From a phage, in the sequence record PZ402300.1: a DNA stretch of 64,000 bases. One strand, 5' to 3'. Numbering within the stretch: position 1 is the stretch's first letter; the number at the start of each line of letters is the position of its first letter. Positions 4,139 to 22,300 of this stretch are shown here, piece by piece. The notes below the pieces were generated by a model. It searched no databases. It was not told the origin of the DNA and worked only from the letters and a program-made list of their open reading frames with translations. A program made the position numbers and the translations under genes.

Positions 4139-5359
4139 ATGACTACGGAAGCTGCAACCACAGCTTCCGACATTCTCGCAATGTCGGATGATGAGATTCT
4201 GAATATGGAAGCCCCAGCTATTATTGCTGAGGAAGACACTTCCACTCAGAACAACCCAGAAACCAACGGCGTACAGACTCCTGATGAAGAAGTTGACCCC
4301 TCTGCTGTTGAAGACCTACCAACCAAAGAAACTTCCCCTGAAACTGAACCAGTTGAAGATGATTCAGCAAATTCTTTAACTTCTGATAAAGTTGATGATA
4401 AAGTTGTTGACACAGAAGTTGATAGTAACGGCAAGCCGATTACTAAAGCTGAACCTTCTACTACTGAACCAGGCCAGGAACAGAAAGAAGAAGGCAAACA
4501 GTCTGAAGGTCTGCCTGCTGACTTCAACTATAAGGAAGGTTATGAGAAGTTGATGGCTCCTTTTAAAGCTAACGGCAAGATGATTACTCCCCGTTCTCCG
4601 GAGGAGGCCATTAGCCTGATGCAGATGGGTGCTAACTATACTCGTAAGATGCAAGAACTTCAGCCGTACCGTAAGGTAATGCTGATGCTACAGAACAACG
4701 GTTTAATGGATGAGGAAAAACTTTCTTTCCTGATTGACCTGGATAAGAAGAATCCTGAAGCCATTAAAAAGTTGTTGAAAGACTCTGGTACAGATCCTCT
4801 GGATTTTAATCCAGAAGAGGAAATTAATTACCAGGGTGGCAAACACCGTGTTACAGACACCGAAGCAGATTTTGCAACCGAAATTGACGACTTAAAGTCT
4901 ACTCAAGAAGGACAAGCTACATTAGGTGTTATTAGCTCGACATGGGATGCTGCCAGTAAAGATGCTCTTTATCATAATCGTGGCTTACTCCAGACTATTC
5001 ACGAACAGCGTGAGAATGGTATTTATGACACCATTGCTAACGAAGTGAATCGTCTCCAGATGTTAGGCCAGATTCCGGTAGGTACTCCATTTATTCAGGC
5101 TTATAACCACGTTGGTAACCTCCTTGCACAGCAGGGTGCATTTAACCAAGTGGCTAAGCCTGAACCGGTACAAGCAGTTAAACCAGCAGTTCAGCCGGTA
5201 GTGCGTGTAGCACGACCTAAGCAGACTCTGGCTAATAACGAGCAAGCTAAAGCAGCTTCCCTTAATCGGGCTGCTACACGTAAAGCTACACCTATTGTAA
5301 ACCCACTCGCTATGAGTGATGAAGATTTCGCTAAACTCCCAGTACCGGGTAGTCTTTAA
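4139..5359 (+). CDS. Hypothetical head-assembly protein with highly acidic low-complexity N-terminus (scaffold-like; N4 gp57 position)
   Basis: 406 aa; Asp/Glu/Pro/Thr-rich N-terminal third; immediately upstream of major capsid gene. Confidence 0.4.
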   Translation: MTTEAATTASDILAMSDDEILNMEAPAIIAEEDTSTQNNPETNGVQTPDEEVDPSAVEDLPTKETSPETEPVEDDSANSLTSDKVDDKVVDTEVDSNGKPITKAEPSTTEPGQEQKEEGKQSEGLPADFNYKEGYEKLMAPFKANGKMITPRSPEEAISLMQMGANYTRKMQELQPYRKVMLMLQNNGLMDEEKLSFLIDLDKKNPEAIKKLLKDSGTDPLDFNPEEEINYQGGKHRVTDTEADFATEIDDLKSTQEGQATLGVISSTWDAASKDALYHNRGLLQTIHEQRENGIYDTIANEVNRLQMLGQIPVGTPFIQAYNHVGNLLAQQGAFNQVAKPEPVQAVKPAVQPVVRVARPKQTLANNEQAKAASLNRAATRKATPIVNPLAMSDEDFAKLPVPGSL

Positions 5360-7354: not shown

Positions 7355-8197
7355 ATGATTATGTCTTGTTCTGCTGAGGTAGAAGCTAACCGACTCCTAG
7401 AAGAGTTAACTAAGGGTGATGACTTTACCCTTCCTGATATTGATATGTCTGGTCCTGAATGGGATATCCCTGGTGGGGATACTTCTCCAATCTTTGGTGC
7501 CATTACCAAAATAACCAATGAATCTCTTACTACCCGTGAAGTAGGAGGTAGTGGTACGTTTGATGCATTAATGGAATCTGCACACAATCACCTTAAAGCT
7601 GAGTTTAAGGCTAACCGAATTACAGGTGGTGAATATACCAAAGCCTATATTGCTATGATGGAATCATGCATGAGTAATGCTGTTCAGTTCTTACTTGGTC
7701 GTGACCAGGCATACTGGGCTGCTGCATTGGCACAGATTCAAGCAGTTACTGCTCGTGTTACATTGGCTACTTCTAAAGCTCAGTATGTGCTGGCTAAGAT
7801 TCAAGCACTGTCTTCTAAGAGTGAATACGCTCTTACTAAGATGAAGATTGCTACTGAGTCCGAGACGTACTGTGCTGCACTGTTTAACGTCGACCAGATG
7901 TTACCCCAACAGCTTAAGCTGATTACTGAACAGACCGAATCACAACGTGCACAGACACTGGATACTCGTACCGATGGTGCAGTAGTTAAGGGTTCTGTAG
8001 GCAAACAGAAAGAACTGTACTCCCAACAGATTACCTCTTACCAACGTGACGCAGAAGTTAAGGCATCTAAGTTGTTTACTGATGCATGGATTACTCAGAA
8101 GACTATTGATGAAGGCTTGAATCCACCTAATGGTTTCACTAACGCAAGTATTGATACCATTTTGACCAAGTTGAAGTCTAACAACGGGCTGAACTAA
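7355..8197 (+). CDS. Hypothetical virion protein (N4 gp54 position)
   Basis: 280 aa ORF; alternative start ATG 7361 with GAGGA RBS. Confidence 0.45.
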
Positions 8198-8198
8198 T

Positions 8199-10856
8199 AT
8201 GGGCTTATTCAGTGGGAAGACCAAAGTATACGTAGCATCCTCTGTCTATAACATGGCAGGGGATATACATAAACGTCCTAACTATATGAAGACCGTAGTT
8301 ATTGGGAACATCATTTCCAATACAGGATTCACTATGGCAGATACTATCTCTGATAGTTATCTGAATGGGCCTGGTATACGTATGCGACTGTTCTCCAGCT
8401 GGAGTAAGAACCACTATGATTCAGAAGTTGGTATGGCTGGTTCTTCATTGGGTGTACTAGCTAAGATTGACCCTACTGTAATAGAGGGTCAAATTACACC
8501 ACCTGCTGGAGAGTCTGTCTATGTTCAGGCAGCAGAGATTGGCTTTGCTGACTTTGAACAATGGTGTGACCAGTATCTTTATGAGAATGCCCCAAGTCGA
8601 ATCATGGAACGATTCGATATAGACATTAACGAAGATACCAATGAAATTACTATGACCTCCCTGGATGGAGGTTCTACTATTAAATTCACACCTACTAACT
8701 TTGAACCAGGTGCTTTGTATCTCTATGCTGATTACTCTTTCTATAAGTCTCCTACTACCAATCCACCAGTAGTAGGACCGACTACTGTCTATGATGATGA
8801 GGATGATTTACCATCCACTTTGCTATGGACTACCGTCTCAAGTGATACGACGGCTAATACAACCAATCTTACTAAGACCATACAGACTCATTCTGTTTAC
8901 TCTGATGGTAGACCAGATGAAGATAGTACTGTCACCGAACCAAGTGTGGATAACTGGAATTCCTACGTTAAGGTCTACCGTAGAGGATTCACTGAGAAAC
9001 CTGATGATGTAACTGTAGTTGTATCTGACAGGGTAATGACCCATAAAAAGTTTGGTGAGGTTCAATCCAGTACTACTGTAACTACTAATGTAGTTGATAT
9101 AGGTGGTGGTGTTACTCGTACTGATACAATTACTACAACCACAGAGACACTGGTTCGTAAGTATTCATCCCAGACTACTCGTACCGATACTGAGATGACT
9201 TCTGTTGGTACACCTAAGATGCTTATTTATAAACATAACTCTGGTAATGTTGCACTGGATTCACTGTTTGAGACTGAGGCTACTGACAACCGATTCTACC
9301 CATTCATTCCAATAAGGAATGATAAACGATGGGTAGAGAATGACCCAATCTACCCACACTGTAAGAAAGCTCTTTATAAAGCTACAGGTGGTAAGCTCAA
9401 TGATGTAGTAACTGAGCTTAAGAAGAATAAGGATATAGGAGATATCCAATACATTTATGGCACATTCGGTGTATCTCTTAATTCCCCTGAGGATACTGCT
9501 AAGGAATACATCTATCGTTTCTTTCAGATGGCTACTGAAGCATTCCCACCTGACCCAACCTATCCGACTTTGGAAGCAGTGATTGCAGGTTATCAGGCAG
9601 CAAACGATGCAGTCGATGCATACGTAAAATGGTGGAACAAGCCAGTAGGACAGCTTGCTGGAACACCTCCACCACCACTACCTGATTACCCAGTTATCCC
9701 CAAGAGGGAATTTAGAGTACATAGTAGTAAACACTACAAGTACGATATGACCATTGGTTGGAACTACGTATCAGAAACCACACATTCTGGTAAAGCATGG
9801 TCTGGTGCTAAGCAGGGGCAACTTCGATCCAGATATGCTGGAGATATAACTCTTACTCGCAAGAACATGAGGACAGTTCCTGGCTCCGGTTCTGCTAAGA
9901 AACTGGAGGTAACATACGCATTCTATTCAATGCAAGAGTATGAGTTACTTTGGCAGGATGGTAATAATTCCTACCGTAAACTCAGAATACTGGGTCTAAA
10001 CCACAACAATAGGGTATATAAGAATAAGTCTGTACACATTGATGTTGCCGGGGCAATGGGTGATGCAGAAGAGAGTGGGTTCATTATTCCACTGCACACT
10101 AACATCTACCGATCCATGTCACTGGTTCGTAGTACCCAATTATCCACTGCTTGCTCCTACTTAGTGATGAACTCATATAAGAAGGTTAAGAAGAAATGGT
10201 ATCAGACCGGGGCATTTAAAATTGTTGTTGTTGTGGTTGCTGTGGTTATCTCTGTATTTACAGCTGGTGCTGGTGGTGCAGGCATACTTGGGGCATATGG
10301 TGCAGTTGGTGCATCTCTGGGTTTTGTCGGATTAGCTGCTGTGATAGTTGGTGCTGTAGCAAACGCTATTGCTGGAATGATTCTGGTATCTATTATCACT
10401 GAAGTATCCGCCTCAATGTTCGGGGATAAGTTGGGATTTATTATTGCAGCTATTGCTTCAATGGTAGCTATGAATGTTGGTACTGCTATGTCTACAGGTA
10501 CATCCCTATCTACCCTGGCAAGTGAAATGATGAATGCACAAAACATCATGCAGCTCACCAGTTCAGTAGGTAATGGTATTAGCCAGTATATTAATGCATC
10601 TACGGCTGCTACTATTCAGAAAGCAGAGAAAGTAATGCAGCAGTACAATACTGATATGATGGCAATCAATAAGCAGTATGAAGAAATGTTTGGTACTGCT
10701 GGACAGGGTGTAATTGACCCAATGCAATTCGTGTCAATGGAGTCACTGGATTCATTCTTATCACGTACTCTCATGACTGGTTCAGATATAGCTGACCTGT
10801 CCCTAGATATGATAGGTAACTACTCTGACATGACCCTTAATACTGACCTTGTTTAA
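8199..10856 (+). CDS. Large virion protein with C-terminal cluster of Gly/Ala-rich transmembrane helices (N4 gp53 position); possible ejection or membrane-inserting protein
   Basis: 885 aa; residues ~665-760 form consecutive hydrophobic GA-rich segments (AFKIVVVVVAVVISVFTAGAGGAGILGAYGAVGASLGFVGLAAVIVGAVANAIAGMILVSII…). Confidence 0.5.
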   Translation: MGLFSGKTKVYVASSVYNMAGDIHKRPNYMKTVVIGNIISNTGFTMADTISDSYLNGPGIRMRLFSSWSKNHYDSEVGMAGSSLGVLAKIDPTVIEGQITPPAGESVYVQAAEIGFADFEQWCDQYLYENAPSRIMERFDIDINEDTNEITMTSLDGGSTIKFTPTNFEPGALYLYADYSFYKSPTTNPPVVGPTTVYDDEDDLPSTLLWTTVSSDTTANTTNLTKTIQTHSVYSDGRPDEDSTVTEPSVDNWNSYVKVYRRGFTEKPDDVTVVVSDRVMTHKKFGEVQSSTTVTTNVVDIGGGVTRTDTITTTTETLVRKYSSQTTRTDTEMTSVGTPKMLIYKHNSGNVALDSLFETEATDNRFYPFIPIRNDKRWVENDPIYPHCKKALYKATGGKLNDVVTELKKNKDIGDIQYIYGTFGVSLNSPEDTAKEYIYRFFQMATEAFPPDPTYPTLEAVIAGYQAANDAVDAYVKWWNKPVGQLAGTPPPPLPDYPVIPKREFRVHSSKHYKYDMTIGWNYVSETTHSGKAWSGAKQGQLRSRYAGDITLTRKNMRTVPGSGSAKKLEVTYAFYSMQEYELLWQDGNNSYRKLRILGLNHNNRVYKNKSVHIDVAGAMGDAEESGFIIPLHTNIYRSMSLVRSTQLSTACSYLVMNSYKKVKKKWYQTGAFKIVVVVVAVVISVFTAGAGGAGILGAYGAVGASLGFVGLAAVIVGAVANAIAGMILVSIITEVSASMFGDKLGFIIAAIASMVAMNVGTAMSTGTSLSTLASEMMNAQNIMQLTSSVGNGISQYINASTAATIQKAEKVMQQYNTDMMAINKQYEEMFGTAGQGVIDPMQFVSMESLDSFLSRTLMTGSDIADLSLDMIGNYSDMTLNTDLV

Positions 10857-10869
10857 CAGGAGAATCCCC

Positions 10870-11313
10870 ATGGATTTGTCATTCTTAACAGGCAACCAAA
10901 CCCCACAGCCAGCTGCTATGTCTTGGATGTCTAATAACAATCAAAACTTTAATACCCCGGCTATGAACTATAATCCCGGTGCAGCTATTGGTATGGGTAC
11001 GAATTTTGGAGCATCTGCCCCTAATACTTTCATGTCTGGCTCGGCTAGTCAGTTAGGCATGAACATACCTACCTTCCAATTAGGACTGGGTGCACTTGGT
11101 TCATTAGCTAATATCTACAGTGGTTTCCAGGCTAATAAGTTAGCCAAAGACCAGTTGAACTTTGCTAAGAGTGTTACTAACACTAACCTGAATAATCAGA
11201 TTAAGTCTTATAACACTGCACTGGAAGACCGTGCTCGTAGCCGTGCTGTTGCAGAGAACCGTGACCAATCTACTGCTGATGCTTACATTGCAGCTAATAA
11301 ATTAACCCGTTAA
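10870..11313 (+). CDS. Hypothetical virion protein (N4 gp52 position)
   Basis: Track ORF 10849..11313; in-frame ATG 10870 follows AGGAG at 10857-10861. Confidence 0.4.
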   Translation: MDLSFLTGNQTPQPAAMSWMSNNNQNFNTPAMNYNPGAAIGMGTNFGASAPNTFMSGSASQLGMNIPTFQLGLGALGSLANIYSGFQANKLAKDQLNFAKSVTNTNLNNQIKSYNTALEDRARSRAVAENRDQSTADAYIAANKLTR

Positions 11314-11325
11314 TAGGAAACCATC

Positions 11326-13272
11326 ATGGCTCAAATTACATGGCGTAATGTTGATGCACCCAACTTCTCTGGAGTTGGTGACAGCATTCGCACATTTGGC
11401 AATATGATTGGTAACGCCACCTCCGGCTTAAGTGATGCACTGGGTAATTTCCAGAACGCTGCCAAGCAGGAGGCTGGCAATGCCGTCATGATGAATGCTA
11501 TGCAGTATCAAGACCCTACTGAGTATCGTAATGCTCTGGCATCCGGTGCATTATTTCAGGGGGTTGATCCTTCATTGGTAAGCCAGCGTACTCTACAGAA
11601 TCTGGATGAGCGAGCAGGTACTCTTCTGACTCAACAAGGTCAACAGGGAATCAATGACTACAATGCTTATCGTTTTGGTCGTTTACAGAATACTGACTCT
11701 GCATTAGATAATGCATCTCCAGCTATTCGTTTACTGTCTGAGGCTTATCAGTCTGGTGACCAGAACCGTATTAATGCTGCATTGAGTCAGACTCGTGAGG
11801 CACTGTCTGCACTTCCTGCTGACCAACAACTGGATATGTTGAGTCGTCTGCAAGGTCAGGGTGGTCAGGCCATTAACCAAGCACAGAACCGTTTTGATTT
11901 GGGTGTGGCTCAGCGTAATGATGCTGATTCACAAGCTGCATCCGGTATATTGACAGATATTTTCCGCAGTGCTTCTACGCCTATGGATGCTCTTACACTG
12001 GCAGAATCTGCCATGAAGAATGCTTCTCCTGGTGTACGTGCTGCAATTATGCGAGGTGTGAACCAGAGATTCCCAGGTACTTATGCCACGTCTGCTTCTG
12101 GCTCTGCTCCTGGTACTGCCGGTACTCGTTCTGGTTCTCCTTATGATGTAACCTACACTTTTGCTGCTACTGATAAGCCCATTACCGAGATGACTCTCGG
12201 TGAGGTTACTAATCATCAACAAACTATGATTAATAACCCATCGCAAGGTCATTCTCCTGTAGGTGCATTCCAGATTAATAAAGCCACTCTGGAAGACTAT
12301 GCTCCTAAGGTGCTTGGTTCAGATTGGCGTAATCAGCAAATGACTCCTGAAGTACAGGACAAAATAGCTGAAGCAATCTTCAATGACCGTAAGAGTGGTA
12401 ACCTTTCTAAGACTTGGGCTGCATTGCCTGACCTGGGTGTAGGTGGTTATAAGGATATGCCTTGGAGTGAAGCACGTCAGTTAATTGCACAGGCAGAAGT
12501 AGGTGCATCCCTTGAACAGTTACAGACCCAGCAAGTAGTCTCAAACATGGCAGGCAATACAGTTGCTGCTCGTCAGTCTGAAGATAATACTGGAACCATT
12601 ACTGCTAACTATGCTCGTGCATTACGTGATAACTCTACCATTGGTGAAGTAGCAGACCGTCTTCTTAAGGATGCTTTTAAAGGTTCTGAGAAAGGATGGA
12701 TGATTGCTCGATTGAATGATGTTATGCAGGAATCTGGGCAGTCTCCTGCTGTAGCTGCTGAGATTCTTAAGCAGTCTACTACTAACGTACCGGAAAGAAT
12801 GATTAGTCGGGCACTTGATGCACTTAACCCGTTCATCTCCAATGAAGGTGGTAATGGTATTCGTATTGATGATACCGTTGCCAGAGAACTAGCACGTTCA
12901 GTACGACGTGGGGAAGGTATTGAAGCTACTGCTCGTGATAATGTTCTTACTCAGGTACAGGGTAATATTGCTAATGCCCAGAACCAGGTAAACCAAGCAG
13001 AAGCTTTGCTTGCTGATACCCGTCGTCGTGTAGCTGCTGGACAAAGTGGACTTGCTGCTACTATCCCTGCTCGTGAAGCTGAGTTAGCAAGAGCACGTGC
13101 TGCACTGGATGCTGCTGTTAATACTGTGGTAGCTAACCAGGGAAATCTGGTTCCACAGAACTTCCGTTCTAATGCTTCAGTAGAACGTGAGCGTAGTCGT
13201 GAAGATGAAGAACGAGCTAAACGTTATCGAAAATTGGCAGAGGGTTTACCTCCCTATATGCAACCTCGATAA
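11326..13272 (+). CDS. Virion protein with a lytic-transglycosylase-like motif (N4 gp51 position)
   Basis: 648 aa; segment TEMTLGEV…GHSPVGAFQINKATLEDY resembles the E…G(L/A)(M/F)Q core of lytic transglycosylases. Confidence 0.45.
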   Translation: MAQITWRNVDAPNFSGVGDSIRTFGNMIGNATSGLSDALGNFQNAAKQEAGNAVMMNAMQYQDPTEYRNALASGALFQGVDPSLVSQRTLQNLDERAGTLLTQQGQQGINDYNAYRFGRLQNTDSALDNASPAIRLLSEAYQSGDQNRINAALSQTREALSALPADQQLDMLSRLQGQGGQAINQAQNRFDLGVAQRNDADSQAASGILTDIFRSASTPMDALTLAESAMKNASPGVRAAIMRGVNQRFPGTYATSASGSAPGTAGTRSGSPYDVTYTFAATDKPITEMTLGEVTNHQQTMINNPSQGHSPVGAFQINKATLEDYAPKVLGSDWRNQQMTPEVQDKIAEAIFNDRKSGNLSKTWAALPDLGVGGYKDMPWSEARQLIAQAEVGASLEQLQTQQVVSNMAGNTVAARQSEDNTGTITANYARALRDNSTIGEVADRLLKDAFKGSEKGWMIARLNDVMQESGQSPAVAAEILKQSTTNVPERMISRALDALNPFISNEGGNGIRIDDTVARELARSVRRGEGIEATARDNVLTQVQGNIANAQNQVNQAEALLADTRRRVAAGQSGLAATIPAREAELARARAALDAAVNTVVANQGNLVPQNFRSNASVERERSREDEERAKRYRKLAEGLPPYMQPR

Positions 13273-13287
13273 AATCTTACATACTAA

Positions 13288-13314
13288 TAAAGCCCCATCC
13301 GGGGCTTTTCTCTT
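13288..13314 (+). terminator. Rho-independent terminator immediately upstream of the vRNAP gene
   Basis: AGCCCC-ATCC-GGGGCT hairpin followed by TTTCTCTT. Confidence 0.5.
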
Positions 13315-13375
13315 ACATTCACTTACTGTACAGTGAATCTTCTTATACGATATAAGTTTGAACAGGAATCATGCT

Positions 13376-16300
13376 ATGTCAACATTTGACCGTCTGGCAG
13401 GTTTCGCAGACAGCATCACTACTGCTAAGCAAGTCGATGTCTCTACTGCAACCTCTCGGAAACAAGCTGAACAAGGGCAAAGCCCTTTCCAACTAACCCC
13501 ACAGAACGCTTACCAATTACAGGCAGGTCGTGCTGGTGACTTAGGTGCTGGTGCATTTGACCCAGGTTCTATTCAGGCAGATTTTACTAATGCCTCCCCC
13601 CTTGAAATCGTAAACAAATATGGCAATGAGCAGGGAATGGACATTCTCAATGCTCGTGTCAATGCAGCTAATGCTGTTCGTCGTGATTTAACTAAGAGTC
13701 GTACATATGGTGAAGCACTTGGTGATACCCTTTTTGGTGTTGGTCTTGGTGTTGCTAATACCCTTGGGGGCATTGCTGCTCTTGGCACAGGTTTGGTCAA
13801 TGATAATGCCGGGGCATCCATTGCTTCCGGTCTTGACTGGTTAAACAAAGGTGTACACAACCTACAGTCTGATGCACTGAATGCTCGTCGTAATGTAGTA
13901 CAGAACCAGAACGTAATATCTGCACAGGAAAATGAGAAACTCTATAAGCAGGATGTTGCTAAAGGGGAAAGTGAACTCGTTGCTTCTCTGTCTCGCATTG
14001 GTCGTGATGCTTACGATTCCGTTGCTAACACTTTATCCAATGGTATGGCTGCTACAGATGGTCTGGCTGAGGGTGTTGGTTCTCTGTTTACAGGTGGTCC
14101 ATTAATTCGTGGTGTATCTGCACTTGGTAAAGTAATGGTAGGTGGGGATAAAGCTGTTAAGGGTATTACCTTAGCTGCTGAATTAGGTTCACGTCCTGCA
14201 CGTACTGCATTAGCTACTGGTCGTGTTGCTGCACCTGCTATGGCAATTGGTGGTATGGAAGCTGGTGGTGCATACCAACAGACTGCTAATGAAATTATGG
14301 AAATGCCATTCAGTGAACTGGCTGCTAAATCTTCTGTATACCAACAGCATATTAAAGACGGTCTGCCTCCTGAAGAAGCTCGTCGTCAGACTGCATCTGA
14401 AACGGGTATTACTGCTGCTGGTTTAACTGCTCCGATTGCTGCTCTTACTGGCCCATTAGTATCCAAGTTTGAACTTAACCCACTTAAGGTAGGTTCACTG
14501 GCTGGTGCTGGTTCTAATATGCTACGTGAGACTGTAGAAGAAGGTATTCAGTCTGGTACAAGTCAGTTTGCACAGAACAAGGCAATTCAGGGTAATGTAG
14601 ATGCTAATCGTGACCTGCTTAAAGGTGTTGGTGAACAAACCGGGCTTGGTGCATTGTATGGCTTTGGCTCTGCTGGAGTTGCTCAAGCTCCTGGTGCAAC
14701 TGTTAAGGCTGCTGGTGCTGCCGTTGGTCCTGCTGTACGTACTACCCTGGCTGGTGCTTCTCTGGCTGGTAAGGCACTAGCAAAAGTAGCTTCTCCTATT
14801 ACTAACATCCTGGTTCAACGTGGAGAAGAAGTAGCTAAACGTAACGAACAAGCATCCCCTGTATCAGACGCTACAGTTAATGCTGCTGCACAAGAAGCTA
14901 CTGCTCAGGCAGAACAAGCGCAAGCAACTGTACAGGAAGCAGTAGATGCAATGGACATTTCTCCAGAAGAGAAAGCTGCTGCTACCCAATATGCTGCTGA
15001 CTTAACTCAGGTAATGAAGTTTGACCCAGTAGAACTGGAACAAGCTAGTCCTGCAATCCGTGAAGCTGTTTCTGGTTCCACTAACCGTGTTGAAGCTATT
15101 CAGAAGATGGCTGACTTGGTTAATACTGCTGAAGACCCTAATGTTCAAATGGAAGCTGCAATCCAGATGTATGACAACATCATGTCTATGGATAGCTTCA
15201 TTAACCGTGACCCGGGTGCATTAGCTAATCTGGAACAAGGTTCTCCTGCTGCTAATATTGTTGACCAGTTCTCTGGTCTGATGGCTAACGTTCAGAATAC
15301 ACCAAAGGTACTTCGTGCATTCCGTGCTATTCATTCTATGATTCAGGAACAGGCTGAAGCAGGTAAACTGAAAGCTACTGAGGAAGCCAATCAAGCTCAG
15401 GCAAACAATATTGCTATGGCTGCTGATATGTCTCCAGAAGTACTGGATGCAGATTCAGTGAACATGGTTCTGAAACATGCAAGTGAAGGTAAGATTACAC
15501 TGGGGAATCGTCAGCGTGCTGCCCTGCAATCTGCTGCTGCTCTATTGCAAGGAGCACGAGAATTTGACGCTAAAGCAGAAGAACTAGGCTTACGTCCTCA
15601 AGACATTGTTAGTAAACAGATTAAAACCGACGAATCTCGTTCTAATGAAGGCCAGTACTCTGCGTTGCAACATGCTAAACGCATTCGTTCTGCGTACAAC
15701 TCTGGTAACTTCGATTTGGCTTCCGCTTATCTCGACGACTTTATGAAGTTCGCCCAGCACATGCAGAATAAGGTCGGAGCGTTGAATGAGCATCTGATTT
15801 CTGGGAATGCGGATAAAAATAAGTCTGTTCATTATCAGGCTCTTACTCCCTCGCGTGAATGGGTACGTAGTCGTACTGGCCTCGGTGTCAATCCGTATGA
15901 TACCAAGTCGGTTAAGTTTGCCCAGCAAGTAGGACTGGAGGCCAAGACCGTAGCTGATATTGCTAACGCACTTGCTACGGCTTACCCGGAGCTTAATGTT
16001 TCTCATGTGAAAGTTACCCCATTGGATTCACGTCTGGACAAACCTGCTGCCCAGGTAGTTAAAGAGTTCCGTCAGGGCAATCTTGATGCTGCTCAATCCC
16101 AACAGACCAATGAACCAGTGAATCAGGTTGATGAAACTCCTGTTACGAAACAGGAACCAGTTACCCCTACTGTACAGACTAAACCCTCTGTTAGTGAAGC
16201 TGTTAAAACAGAATCCACTATTAAAGAGTCTAAACCACAGTCTGTAAAAGAACCTGAGAACCAGTCTGAAAAACAGGATGTTACCCTCACTAATGAGGAT

Positions 16301-19300
16301 ACCACTCAGGAAGTGGCTGAAACTAAAACAGAAATGGAAACAGTGTTCCCTGTCTATAACAATGAAAAGACACCGAACCAGTTCATTAAAGCATTTTCTC
16401 TACCAGAAGAACCTAAGTCTCGTACCATTGGTTCTGAGTCTCCTCTGACCGATGTTAAGAAAGCACTGTCTTCTGCTGCTCGTTTCGAAGCATTCACTCA
16501 AAAAGAAAATAACGCCCTCACAAGTGATGTGATTAAGCGTTATCAGGACTTATTTGATTTTGGTGAAATTCTGAAGACTACCCTGTCTGACCGTCTGGCT
16601 AAGTTCCTTGCTAATAAGAATGTTGGTAAACGTTTTGCAGAAGGTACTGAGGCTAACCGTTGGGTAGGTGGTAAGTTACTTAACATCGTAGAAAAAGATG
16701 GTGACACCTTTAAGTTCAATGACCAGTTGTTAGAGACTGCTGTACTTGCTGGTCTGCAATGGCGATTAACTGCTACACAGAATGCTGCTGTTAAAGACAT
16801 GAAAGACGTAGCTGCTATTACTGGTGTAGAAGCATCTCTGCTACCAGAAGGCATTTTGGCTGATTTCGAAAATGCTCAGACATTGGTTGAAGCTACTAAC
16901 TCACTGGCTCAAAAGATTGAATCTTATTGGGGACTTAACCGTAATGCTGATGCACCACTTGGTTATACCAAGGGTATCCCAGTGGCAATGGCTACAGAGA
17001 TTCTATCTTCTTTTATTGAGATGGGTGTAGTTAAAGAGTCTATGCTGGATGTGTCTGAGATTGACCCAGAATCTAAAAAGACTGTTGGTCTGTATACCAT
17101 TGATAAGTTAGAGGATAATGATGCCATTAATAATTTCCCTACTGCTATTGAGGAAGCTGTCCTTGTAGAACCAGCAGAGAAACTGTACCTAGGTGATGAT
17201 ATTCCTTCCGTGGCTCCTACTCAGTTACGTAACCCTGCTGTCCGTAATACTCCAGAACAGAAAGCTGCTCTTAAAGCAGAACAGGCTACTGAGTTCTTTG
17301 TACATACTCCAATGGTTCAGTTCTATGAGGCGTTAGGTAAAGACCGTATCCTCGAACTGATGGGTGCAGGTACTCTGGATAAAGATTTACTTAATAAGAA
17401 CCATGCTAAATCTTTGGAAGGCAAGAATCGTTCAGTAGAGGATTCTTATAACCAATTGTTCTCTGTTATTGAACAGGTAAGAGCACAGAGTGAAGACATT
17501 TCCACTGTGCCTATTCACTATGCATACAATATGACTCGTGTTGGTCGTATGCAGATGTTAGGTAAATATACCCCCCAATCAGCTAAGCTGGTTCGTGAGG
17601 CTATTTTACCTACCAAAGCTACTCTGGATTTATCGAACCAGAACAACGAAGATTTCTCTGGCTTCCAGCTTGGACTGGCTCAGGCATTAGGTATCAAAGT
17701 TCATAAAATGACTCGTGAAACTATGTCAGAGGAACTTACCAAAGCTCTGGAAGGTAAGCTGAAACCTGCTGTAGATATGATGGTTGAGTTTGATAAGTCT
17801 GGATACTTACCTACTGATGCAGTGGATATCTTAAGAACATCTCTGGGTAATGATAAATCCTTTGTGGCTCTCATGGCTCTTATGGAATATGCCCGTTACC
17901 TTAACAGTGATGACCGTGCCAACTTTAATACTCCTTTGTACGTTGAAGCCGATGGGGTAACCAACGGACCAATCAACGCAATGGTATTAATGACTGGTGG
18001 TAAGTTCACTCCAAACTGGATTAAGAATACTGCCAAAGGTGGTTTGTTCTTTGGTAAAGCTGGTAAGACTATGAATGAGCATCATACGCAGGATGACAGT
18101 GTTGACCTGTATGAAGCATCTACAAATAGTCTGCAATTCTATCTGAATGAATTACGTAATACTTACAGTAAAAATATTCCAGTTATAAACCAGATGGACC
18201 ATCTCCAGAAGTTAATGAACTTGTTCATTAAAGACTTCAATCTTAAGGAAGACGGTACTCTGGACCTGAAGCGTGGTATCGCTAAAAACCCACTTACCAT
18301 TACCATCTATGGTTCTGGTGCTCGTGGTATTGCAGGCAAGATGGTAAGTGCAATTACTGATACCATCTATGAACGCTTAAGCGACGTTCTGAAAGCCCGT
18401 GCTGTTGACCCTAACATTCCCCCAGCTATGGCGATGTTTGGTAAGGAGGCTGCGTCTGAGGCTGATGCTCAGGCTATGCTGGATACCTTCCTTACTTCTA
18501 TGAAAGCGTTGACTGGGAATATTCCAGCTAAGCGTAAAGGTAAGTTATTCATTAAGGAAGTAGACGGTGTTCTGACTGGTAAGTTAGACCCCCAGGAGTT
18601 TACTGTATCTGGTAATGCTCTTAAGAACTTACAAGAGAATATGCTGCATTTCTTTGTTGAGCCAATGAGGCAAAGTATCCGGTTCACTGTTGGTGAGGGG
18701 TTGATGCACTCTACTGAGAATTTGCAGAAAGCTACCCAGATTCAATCTCTGGTATTGCAGGATATGTTCCAACAAGCAGTACAGGCTAAGCTGGCAGAAA
18801 AAGAAAAAGACCCAACATGGAAGAAGGGTGATTTCTTAACGCAGAAAGAATTGAATGAAATCCAGAATAGCTTAGCTCCACTGGCTCCAATGATTAAGAC
18901 TGGTTCCCAGACTTTCTACATTGCTGGAAGTGAGAATACTGACGTTGCTAACCAAGTATTGGCTACCAACTTAGATGACCGTATGCGTGTGCCAATGAGT
19001 ATCTATGCTCCTTCGCAGGCAGGTGTTGCAGGTATTCCCTTTATGACCATCGGTACTGGTGATGGCATGATGATGCAGACCCTTTCTACTATGAAAGGTG
19101 CTCCGAAGAATACCCTGAAAATCTTTGATGGTATGAACATTGGTATCAATGACATTACTGATGCAAGTCGTAAAGCTAATGAGGCTGTATATACTTCCTG
19201 GCAGGGTAATCCTATTAAGAATGTATATGAGTCTTTCTCTAAGTTTGTTAAGAATGTTGATTTAAATAAGCTGTCCGATTCAGCAATAGATGCTATTGCA

Positions 19301-22300
19301 AAGTCTGCTTTAGACTTTGAGCAACGTGCTCATATTGCCAGGGTAGATGGTGATAGAGATTATAAAATTTCTATGATTAGAGATTCTGGTATTGCATTAA
19401 TTGAGCGTAACCTACGTAACATTGCTTTGGGTGTAGATATTCGTCACAAGGTAATGGACCAGGTACAGGTCACTGTTGACCAGATGGCTGCTGTTGGTGC
19501 TCCTTATGTGAACAACGGTAAAATCTCTCTGGAAGGTCTGACTATAGACCAGCAAGTAGCCAAGCTGAACGAACTGTTTGATGCTGAATTAAACAAGCGT
19601 CGTGATGCAGTACGTGCTGCTAAAGCGGAACCAACGAAGGCAGAACCAGTGAAGGAAGTGCCGGTGAAAGTTGTACCAGCTATGGAGAAGGTAGGTCGTG
19701 TACTGAAGTCTGGTGTACGCCTGTTGTCTAATGCTGCTATTACTAAGCTGGCTAAAGAGATGTCTCCTGAACAGCAAGCAGTATTGAAAGAAATACAGAA
19801 ATCTCTTGCTGCTAAAGACTACAAGGTTGTTTACGGTACACCTTCTCAACTGGATGCCTACGCTATTGAGAAGAACATTACTCGCCCAGCACCAGAAGAT
19901 ATTGAAGCTGCTGAAGCAGGTAATGCATATGGCTGGACTAACTTTGAAGATAAGACCATCTACTTAGTTACCCCTTCCTTAGAGACTTTGGTTCATGAAT
20001 TAGTACATGCTTCTACTTTTGAATCTGTACTGGCTCACTACGAAGGCACCCCTAATGAAGCTGTCCAGAACATTGAAGACCTGATGAACCAGTTCCGTGC
20101 TTTGGATGTTAAGGATGAATCCCCGGTAGTACGTGAAGCATATGCCGATGCACTGAATACCATTAATGGTCATTTGTCTAATGGCTTTATTGAACCAGCA
20201 ATGGCTAAAGCTGCTGCACTGAATGAGTACATGGCTTGGGGTTTAACCAACCGTGAACTTATTAGTAAGCAGAAGAAAACCACTGCACTTAAGACTATGG
20301 TTCAGGCTGTATATGAAGCAATCAAACGTTTGGTATTCGGACGTAAGAAAGCTCCAGCTAATGCAGATGATATGTTCTCGGGCTTATTGTTTAACTCTGC
20401 TGTAGTTATGCGTGGGCAGGCTCCTACTGCTGCTGTAGCCAAAGACACTACCCTGTTCCATAACAAAGCATATGGTGACAATACTCGTCTGGAAGAGTTA
20501 GGGAAAACCTTCGATAAGTTGATTACTGACTACATTGGTTCAGAACCAGTACAGCAAGTAATTCGTAAAGGTAAGTTTTCCGATGCAGTAGTGAATGCAA
20601 CTAAAGTAACTCGTGATGTTCAGGCTCATGGCTTCACCATGAATATGCAGGAACAGCGTCTCTTTACTAACATTGTTGCTGCTCTCGCTACCGAGGCTGC
20701 TATTAACCCTGCTGCTCTGGCTCGTGCACAGGAATACTACACGCATGTTACTAAGAATCTGACTGTTGAAGCATTTATGTCTGACCCTGATAGTACTAAC
20801 CCTGCTGACCGTTACTATGCACAGCAGAAGTTCGATACCATCATGGGTGCTAACAACATTGAGTTTGATGCACAAGGTCGTTCTTCCTTACTGCCTACCT
20901 TTGTTGGTCTGGCAATGGTAAGCGAAGAGGTACGTAAGGTACTGGCTTATATTCCTGTTATGAAAGCAGATAAGAAATCAGGCAATACCGTTGATGCAAT
21001 GCTGACTAATATCGGTACTGCTGCAATGGCTAGTTTGAATGCTCGTGTAGCAGGCGATACTAAAGCCACTAACGTACAAGAAGGTATGGATGCACTGGCT
21101 CAGACAATCATGCAGACCAGCCTTAATGCAGAGTCCTTCTATGATTCCGTTGCTACTCCTACCGGTAATGCTATTGACCGTGCTAACCAGTATCTGGTGG
21201 ATTCTATTGATGTACTGTCTACCCGTGCTTTAGAAGGTGCTCGTGAAGTTGCAGCTAATACCAAGAACCCATTGGTTAAAGGTGCTGCTCATGCTGCACA
21301 ACTGGTAGCTGCTATTGCTACAGAGAAGAATGGTTCAATCGTAGCTGAGGGTGTTATGGCTGCAATGAACCAAGGTAAAGTATGGCAACCTTTCCATGAC
21401 CTGGTTAATGACATAATCGGTCGTACTAAGAGCAATGCTTCTGTATACGATTTGATTAAAGCAGTACGTGCACAGGTACAAGCTGACCGTCAACAGTTCC
21501 GTGAACACCTACCTACCACTATCGCATCCAAATTCAGCCGTAAGCTGACTAATGATGAGTGGAAAGCAATGCATACCGGTATGGGTAAAACTGACTTAGC
21601 TGTTCTGCGTGACACTATGTCTCTGGCTGAAATCCGTGACCTACTGACTGACCAAAAGATTGTTGACCGTGAGGTTAATAAACTGGAAGCAGATTTGCAG
21701 AAACAAGCAGGACGTAACTGGCCTCTGATTAATCGTAAATCTAAGCAACTGGCTCAGTACATGATTAATGGTACAGTCGGTAATAACCTGCTGCGTAATG
21801 CTACTGCAATTTCACGTTTGCTGGGTGAACGTAAGACTACACGTTCTGTTGTAGATGTAGCTCAGCTGGATAAACTGATTACTTTATATGCACTGGAAGC
21901 AATGAATAAGACTGACCGTGAGATGTTATCTTCACTGGCTCAGACAGAAATTGAAGGTATGGACTTTGCTACATCTTACCTGGTTGGCCAGCGTAAAGAT
22001 GAAATGGCTAAAGTCAAGTCTGATAGTCGTGCAACTCTGAACCAGTACAAAGGGTATATTCCTGGTGAGACTAAACAGGGTGTTAACCTGATTGTTGCTG
22101 AAGATAGTCAGTTTGTTGATTTGATTGAGAAATCCTATGTACGTCTGGGGACTTATCAAGGTAGCTCTGCTAATCGTGGTCCAGCACGTAGTTACTACTT
22201 TGCACCAGTACAGGCACAGGCTCCATTCTCACAGGGTATCCTACAGAACGTTCGCAATACTGCTGGTGGTGTAGACCTCGGCACAGGCTTTACGATGGGA

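Follow-up and report, generated by a model that had tools for sequence, protein, structure and literature searches.

A Gly/Ala-rich hydrophobic block in a G7C-like phage belongs to a very probable N4-family tail plug and in part corresponds to the cork of the N4 tail tube

The open reading frame (ORF) at positions 8,199 to 10,856 of a 64,000-nucleotide stretch of phage DNA (sequence record PZ402300.1; the whole stretch is called the window below) encodes a protein with about 100 consecutive residues of hydrophobic, Gly/Ala-rich sequence. This raises the question of whether these residues are transmembrane helices by which an ejected protein or a channel former would enter the host envelope, as the initial annotation had supposed, or have another role in the virion. 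We conclude that the ORF is very probably the tail plug gene of a podophage of the N4 family (Schitoviridae, G7C-like), and that a single copy of its product would cap the dodecameric tail tube at its distal end. The hydrophobic feature is real, its nature has already been published for the orthologue, and at least some of the helices would cork the tube.

The ORF is intact: on the plus strand it runs from an ATG through 885 codons to a stop codon. When hydropathy was calculated in a 19-residue Kyte-Doolittle window with a threshold of 1.6, mean values of at least 1.6 were obtained only at window starts 667–747, that is, over residues ~667–765, and values were 0.7 or lower everywhere else. Ala, Gly and Val account for 21%, 16% and 18% of residues 671–765, and charged residues make up 4% of them, compared with 19% of the whole protein. 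Hydropathy and composition therefore bear out the description of an 885-aa ORF with a GA-rich hydrophobic stretch of roughly 100 residues. The cluster does lie near the C-terminus, but the protein does not end in it as had been stated: the block stops ~120 residues before the C-terminus and is followed by a non-hydrophobic, partly well-conserved tail. The rest of the protein had been described as soluble and Thr/Ser-rich; Thr is indeed abundant at residues 201–340 (24%), but it is there that the richness is concentrated rather than throughout the soluble portion. When membrane insertion was scored with approximate values of a Hessa-type scale, the segments 675–693, 702–720, 715–733 and 745–763 scored about −0.1 to +2.0 kcal/mol, and every other 19-mer of the protein scored at least 8.4.

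The window belongs to a G7C-like (Gamaleyavirus) N4-family E. coli phage of the Schitoviridae. The best tblastn matches of the protein, all full-length, were to G7C-like coliphages at 91–95% identity, for example vB_EcoP-ZQ2 (ZQ2; Gamaleyavirus), and full-length matches were also obtained with gp70 of Shigella phage Moo19 (70%) and with N4 gp53 (54% over residues 1–884). N4 gp63 to gp50 all match the window collinearly with 48–90% identity, and the gene order is that of N4: portal, gp58, gp57, major capsid protein (MCP), gp55, gp54, the ORF under study, gp52, gp51 and gp50, with 48–89% identity for all of them from the portal to gp50. Its immediate neighbourhood is as follows.

7355..8197, plus strand: tail tube gene, N4 gp54 orthologue (64% identity to N4 gp54; PHROG 2050)
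8199..10856, plus strand: very probable tail plug gene, orthologue of N4 gp53, DEV gp74 and Moo19 gp70 (885 aa)
10870..11313, plus strand: N4 gp52 orthologue, ejection protein (60% identity to N4 gp52 from 10870)
11326..13272, plus strand: N4 gp51 orthologue, ejection protein (48% identity to N4 gp51; PHROG 6126)
13376..23797, plus strand: virion RNA polymerase gene, N4 gp50 orthologue (67% identity from residue 1; Schitoviridae marker)

At the sequence junction, the ATG of the 885-aa ORF lies one base downstream of the stop codon of the 280-aa tail tube ORF. The gp52 orthologue is likely to start at ATG 10870 rather than at TTG 10849, because the similarity to N4 gp52 begins at 10870 and an AGGAG motif precedes this ATG. 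The 3,479-aa virion RNA polymerase ORF carries four N4 virion-RNA-polymerase Pfam domains. The PHROGs and Pfam collections offered little by way of function for the other products: the protein matched PHROG 2220 with 1,104 bits over residues 1–884, a group annotated only as of unknown function, and no Pfam family was found for it or for the gp54-, gp52- and gp51-like proteins of the window.

In the comparison with N4 gp53 that the initial annotation had proposed, gp53 is a full-length orthologue with ~54–56% identity (54% by tblastn, 56% by global alignment). A phmmer search returned the PDB entry 9yft_FA, 'Gp53', with E = 0 and 1,061 bits over residues 1–884, and also matched 9ze4 chain M, 'N4 gp53-like protein'. 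The N4 gp53 tail plug is reportedly also treated by Zheng et al. 2025 (Structure 33:1250). N4 gp53 (PDB 9YFT) is a single-copy tail plug that closes the 12-mer gp54 tube and lies mostly outside it (Bellis et al. 2026, PMC13434306). It consists of a globular core and a feather-shaped beta-sheet, and a 'hydrophobic knot', built from residues 29–56 and 670–716 as six short helices, corks the base of the tube (PMC13434306). The N4 model covers gp53 residues 9–724; the final ~160 residues are outside the model, within the lumen of the tail (PMC13434306). Assignment to the virion module likewise holds, given the orthology and the detection of orthologues in virions by mass spectrometry: gp53 was found in N4 virions by LC-MS (PMC13434306), and Moo19 virions purified in CsCl contained gp70, annotated as 'hypothetical protein, similar to N4's gp53'. 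At the tip of the Moo19 tube the authors saw only 'very weak density', which they left without assignment and which counts against the plug reading. In Pseudomonas phage DEV, cryo-EM revealed the same plug arrangement for gp74 (PDB 9ZE4 chain M), which is held by a gp56-gp55-gp54 fibre (PMC12892993). For DEV delta-56, leaky or DNA-less virions have been seen. Predicted transmembrane domains of gp53 have also been remarked on before (PMC12642591).

When the published N4 structure was mapped onto the protein by global alignment, both halves of the knot aligned without gaps, and the following parts could be assigned.

8283..8366, plus strand: counterpart of the N-terminal half of the knot, residues 29–56, corresponding to N4 gp53 29–56 (68% identity to N4, ungapped)
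8829..9200, plus strand: Thr-rich beta-'feather', residues 211–334 (AlphaFold2 strands at residues 211–234, 241–266, 272–302 and 305–334)
10179..10202, plus strand: basic/aromatic collar KKVKKKWY, residues 661–668, directly before the hydrophobic block (from conservation)
10221..10361, plus strand: counterpart of the C-terminal half of the knot, residues 675–721, corresponding to N4 gp53 670–716 (66% identity, ungapped)
10362..10493, plus strand: second half of the hydrophobic block, residues 722–765 (from hydropathy and conservation)
10494..10853, plus strand: C-terminal 120 residues (predicted helical, pLDDT below 50)

The last residue of the N4 model, 724, corresponds to residue 729 here in the same global alignment, and thus the first half of the block corresponds to the knot, and residues 722–765 together with the C-terminal 120 residues are the stretch near or past the end of the N4 model. 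Residues 675–721 are the most hydrophobic part of the protein and have a low column entropy of 1.48 bits. Across 262 sequences, G695, L697, G698, V703, G704, G708, G711, A714 and G718 in this segment were each at least 85% conserved, as were F673 in front of it, K664, K666, W667 and Y668 of the collar, whose charge pattern is seen in the alignment, and N722, A723, A725, G742 and G746 in the second half of the block, where residues 742–744 form a conserved G-D/E-K turn. The C-terminal 120-residue segment, which can still be aligned to DEV gp74, contains a motif at ~848–865 in which E848, F853, L854, R856, T857, L858, G861 and A865 reach at least 85% conservation in the same 262 sequences. In the helix at residues 712–734, conservation showed helical periodicity with a peak at 95 degrees and a conserved face of small residues. 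The pattern of G704, G708, G711, A714 and G718, together with N722, is as would be expected for tight helix-helix packing. Such small-residue periodicity is compatible both with a packed knot and with a membrane helix bundle, between which sequence alone does not distinguish, and the segments are sufficiently hydrophobic to pass for transmembrane helices.

An AlphaFold2 monomer model displayed a globular core and four strands of ~24–31 residues, with block-mean pLDDT of ~70–92 across most of residues 7–660 and 50–64 in a few blocks. In the beta-feather these values were mostly 83–92, with one block at 69. The core fold is common to the AlphaFold2 model and the solved DEV plug, with 12–13% identity in the structural alignments. 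Confidence fell to pLDDT ~54–62 at residues 661–688 and below 50 for most of 689–885. Helices were predicted at residues 29–40 and 46–55, and for the hydrophobic block itself the low-confidence AlphaFold2 prediction and the six short helices of the N4 cryo-EM model agree with helices rather than a buried beta core, as had been anticipated. The knot as such is absent from the monomer prediction, a point against the plug reading, although a knot forming inside a 12-mer tube is beyond the reach of a monomer model. An aerolysin-type beta-pore-forming toxin was also considered for the beta-feather and rejected, as the combination of significant fold similarity and an amphipathic insertion hairpin was not found in it.

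The block is a property of the family. It was present at the same location in 32 of 32 aligned homologues with 33–94% identity, among which residues 671–724 had a mean column identity of 68%, compared with 52% overall. A profile search of 1.84 billion representatives recovered 2,387 relatives, and the block was found in all 261 homologues of at least 600 aa that were compared, with a median span of 100 residues and an end at a median of 125 residues before the C-terminus; the 21 of them shorter than 800 aa all carry it, featherless forms included. Because its position is the same in 32/32 aligned homologues and in 261/261 homologues of at least 600 aa, the hydrophobic block is not a product of chance. 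The feather stretch, on the other hand, is missing from many homologues of ~730–830 aa, which matched the profile in two stretches. DEV gp74 retained sequence similarity across the hydrophobic block and the C-terminus with E = 1e-13 to 5e-18. Relative to N4, identity was 85% over residues 1–40 and 62–82% over 601–800, compared with 28–50% over 161–360 and 481–600. The segments predicted to enter the tube are thus the best conserved relative to N4 and the parts predicted to be exposed are the least.

The present analysis supports the plug assignment by showing that the protein is an orthologue in a syntenic position, that the block is conserved across the family and that the core resembles the DEV plug in fold. 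The location of the plug, its copy number and the structure of the knot were determined by others for N4 and DEV, and the homology suggests that the plug arrangement would be the same in this phage. By this homology, the globular core and the Thr-rich beta-feather would sit outside the tube, while residues 29–56 and 675–721 would form a compact knot of short hydrophobic helices wedged in the tube lumen, and the knot would keep both the DNA and gp52, the ejection protein of the lumen, from leaving. What remains of the block would run up the lumen together with the last ~120 residues of the chain. For N4, a lateral displacement of the plug upon receptor binding has been proposed, in which its C-terminus would serve as a 'ripcord' for the luminal gp52 (PMC13434306). 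Release has the status of a model even in N4 and may by analogy proceed here in the same way: once the receptor-binding apparatus has engaged the host, a sideways pull on the plug would draw the knot and the C-terminal tail out of the tube, and gp52, gp51 and the virion RNA polymerase would then be released, leading to a trans-envelope channel.

How the plug is held and released probably differs between lineages. The core of N4 gp53 binds domains D9–D10 of the receptor-binding sheath protein gp65 (PMC13434306). N4 gp64 and gp65 were not detected in the window, which begins inside the gp63 homologue, so that the tail-fibre genes lie outside it; their absence was therefore judged in the closest relative, ZQ2 (95% identical in the plug), rather than in this phage's own tail-fibre module. 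In ZQ2, tblastn gave no match to gp65 or gp64 at E <= 1e-3, and blastp with the cut-off relaxed to E <= 10 gave no significant match to either (best E 0.09). The tail-fibre module of ZQ2 consists of a gp67-like adaptor, a 1,073-aa protein that shares only its first 72 residues with N4 gp66, and a 780-aa tailspike. As judged in ZQ2, the gp65 sheath that defines an N4-type tail-gating complex (plug plus gp65/gp64 sheath) was not found, and since ZQ2 is without gp64 and gp65, retention and release of the plug in this lineage must differ from those in N4. Receptor binding in G7C-type phages occurs via branched tailspikes, and the tailspike and the 1,073-aa gp66-like protein are candidate partners of the plug.

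Among the other explanations, the one that fares best, which we nonetheless regard as unlikely, is a dual role in which the protein serves as a plug in the virion and, after release, the block (especially residues 722–765) and the C-terminal tail enter the host outer membrane, where they would anchor the plug or seed the insertion of the gp52 channel. On the approximate scale, the four segments lie near the threshold for membrane insertion and nothing else in the protein comes close, and the conserved Lys-rich, Trp-Tyr collar ahead of the block resembles an interfacial anchor. In addition, the N4 model leaves out one half of the block as well as the 120 residues that follow it, all of which adjoin the membrane-active gp52, for which the N4 authors' 'ripcord' proposal likewise involves the C-terminus (PMC13434306), and phi29 gp9 provides a precedent for a hydrophobic element that fills a lumen and later enters a membrane (PMC6542822). 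Two observations point the other way. The plug is found on both full and empty N4 particles (PMC13434306), and its return to the tube in emptied particles speaks against a move into the membrane, albeit that the emptying was done in vitro; moreover, residues 675–721 are highly conserved on all faces, which a packed knot fits better than lipid-facing helices. In a more specific and still less probable form, the block may be a putative two-state element, a knot and luminal tail in the virion that enters the outer membrane after release and anchors the displaced plug or nucleates the gp52 pore, with a different plug partner replacing gp64/gp65 in G7C-like phages.

That the protein is itself ejected and forms, or forms part of, a trans-envelope DNA channel via transmembrane helices, like N4 gp51/gp52 or T7 gp14–16, is very improbable. 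The TM-like hydropathy, the position of the gene next to the ejection cassette gp52-gp51-gp50 and the GenBank annotation of the Klebsiella phage KP8 orthologue as having '4 transmembrane helical domains' are consistent with it, but the N4 proteins demonstrated to form channels in bilayers are gp52 and gp51, not gp53, and gp52 sits in the N4 tail lumen (PMC13434306). Furthermore, a folded core of ~670 residues with a rigid beta-feather is ill-suited to unfold through a tail channel of ~35 Å, and the N4 orthologue is single-copy, mostly external and retained on empty particles, so that this reading is largely refuted for N4; being present in one copy, a plug could not by itself build a DNA-sized channel. 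Of the earlier proposal, the role in ejection survives in that the protein would take part in starting it, and the channel-forming, envelope-inserting mechanism is not supported, as N4 gp53 is a single-copy plug and the channels belong to gp52 and gp51. Least probable of all is an assembly device in which the block targets the newly made plug to the host inner membrane or a chaperone and has no sealing role: TM-like hydropathy and an upstream Lys cluster in keeping with the positive-inside rule are all that favour it, while in the N4 structure these residues physically occlude the tube (PMC13434306), the strict small-residue packing pattern, with residues 29–56, argues for a defined fold, and tail assembly in this family is not known to be membrane-associated.

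The tail plug assignment bears on current annotation. Among the matches listed, all eight close relatives (91–95% identity) have the gene in GenBank as 'hypothetical protein', and in other GenBank records it appears as 'baseplate wedge protein' and as '4 transmembrane helical domains containing protein'. The gene can now be named tail plug, and the hydrophobic block can be explained as the cork of the tail tube.

Compared with the known systems, the protein is closest to N4 gp53, with which it shares the length of 885 aa, the genomic position, the ungapped knot segments, the Thr-rich beta-feather and the conserved C-terminal motif, whereas its external surfaces are far less conserved (the 28–50% regions at 161–360 and 481–600). 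DEV gp74 differs in its length of 740 aa, in being without the beta-feather and in being held by a receptor-binding fibre instead of a sheath. Moo19, like the lineage of the window, carries G7C-gp66-like and tailspike proteins. N4 gp52 and gp51 (DEV gp73 and gp72) resemble the plug in being encoded by neighbouring genes, in being carried in the virion, in having hydrophobic or membrane-active parts and in acting at a common ejection step. In contrast to the single-copy, mostly external plug that stays on emptied particles, they are multi-copy, have their storage site around the portal or within the tail lumen, and form bilayer channels after expulsion. The L-loops of phi29 gp9 are hydrophobic helices that occupy the distal part of the tail lumen in the mature virion and come out at ejection; they are part of the tube protein, are present in multiple copies and rearrange to a helix barrel that penetrates the membrane and has a channel of ~32 Å (Xu et al. 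2016 Nature; PMC6542822). The likeness of phi29 gp9 to the plug is a functional analogy without homology, and here the helices are borne by one separate plug protein.

The extreme C-terminus of the 885-aa tail plug protein, residues 848-885 (window 10740-10853), bears a conserved motif in which E848, F853, L854, R856, T857, L858, G861, and A865 are at least 85% conserved across 262 homologues. DEV gp74, the tail plug of Pseudomonas phage DEV, is still alignable across the motif, and the N4 map has no resolved density for this region of the plug (PMC13434306). These C-terminal residues probably make contact with the tube wall or with gp52 inside the tail lumen.

For the gp52-like ORF, the listed start is TTG 10849, which makes it overlap the stop codon of the plug gene (window 10849-10870). 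Similarity to N4 gp52 begins at ATG 10870, and AGGAG sits upstream of this ATG. Judged from the sequence, the 147-aa form starting at ATG 10870 is more likely to be the gp52-like product than the longer TTG form. Directly 3' of the stop codon of the gp51-like gene, a GC-rich hairpin is followed by a T-run (aaagccccatccggggcttttctctt; window 13270-13376). By its sequence, this element looks like an intrinsic terminator, which would separate the plug-gp52-gp51 genes from the vRNAP gene. Similarity of the vRNAP to its N4 counterpart begins at nt 13376, whereas the listed start is TTG 13358.

The 406-aa gp57 orthologue (window 4139-5359) is named "tail length tape measure protein" in PHROG 2120 and in the record of Escherichia phage vB_EcoP-ZQ2 (ZQ2), the closest relative. 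Since the phage is short-tailed, this name is doubtful and is probably a propagated misannotation. In an ORF-poor region downstream of the vRNAP gene, two neighbouring tRNA genes were observed (window 25092-25247, minus strand), one a tRNA-Ile (AAT) and the other with an irregular two-base anticodon according to ARAGORN; their scores of 64.8 and 42 bits both exceed the Rfam tRNA gathering score.

Because the window begins within the gp63 homologue, the tail module was read from ZQ2 instead:

ZQ2 genome 4967-11358 (outside the window), tail module: a 1,073-aa protein with a gp66-like start, then a 780-aa tailspike

No homologues of N4 gp64 and gp65 were found in ZQ2 (tblastn, no hit at E <= 1e-3; blastp with the cut-off at E <= 10, nothing significant, best E 0.09). 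In N4, the plug is held by these two sheath proteins (PMC13434306); G7C-type tails would therefore retain it through some other partner. Conservation of gp66 in ZQ2 is limited to its first 72 residues, which form the start of the 1,073-aa protein.
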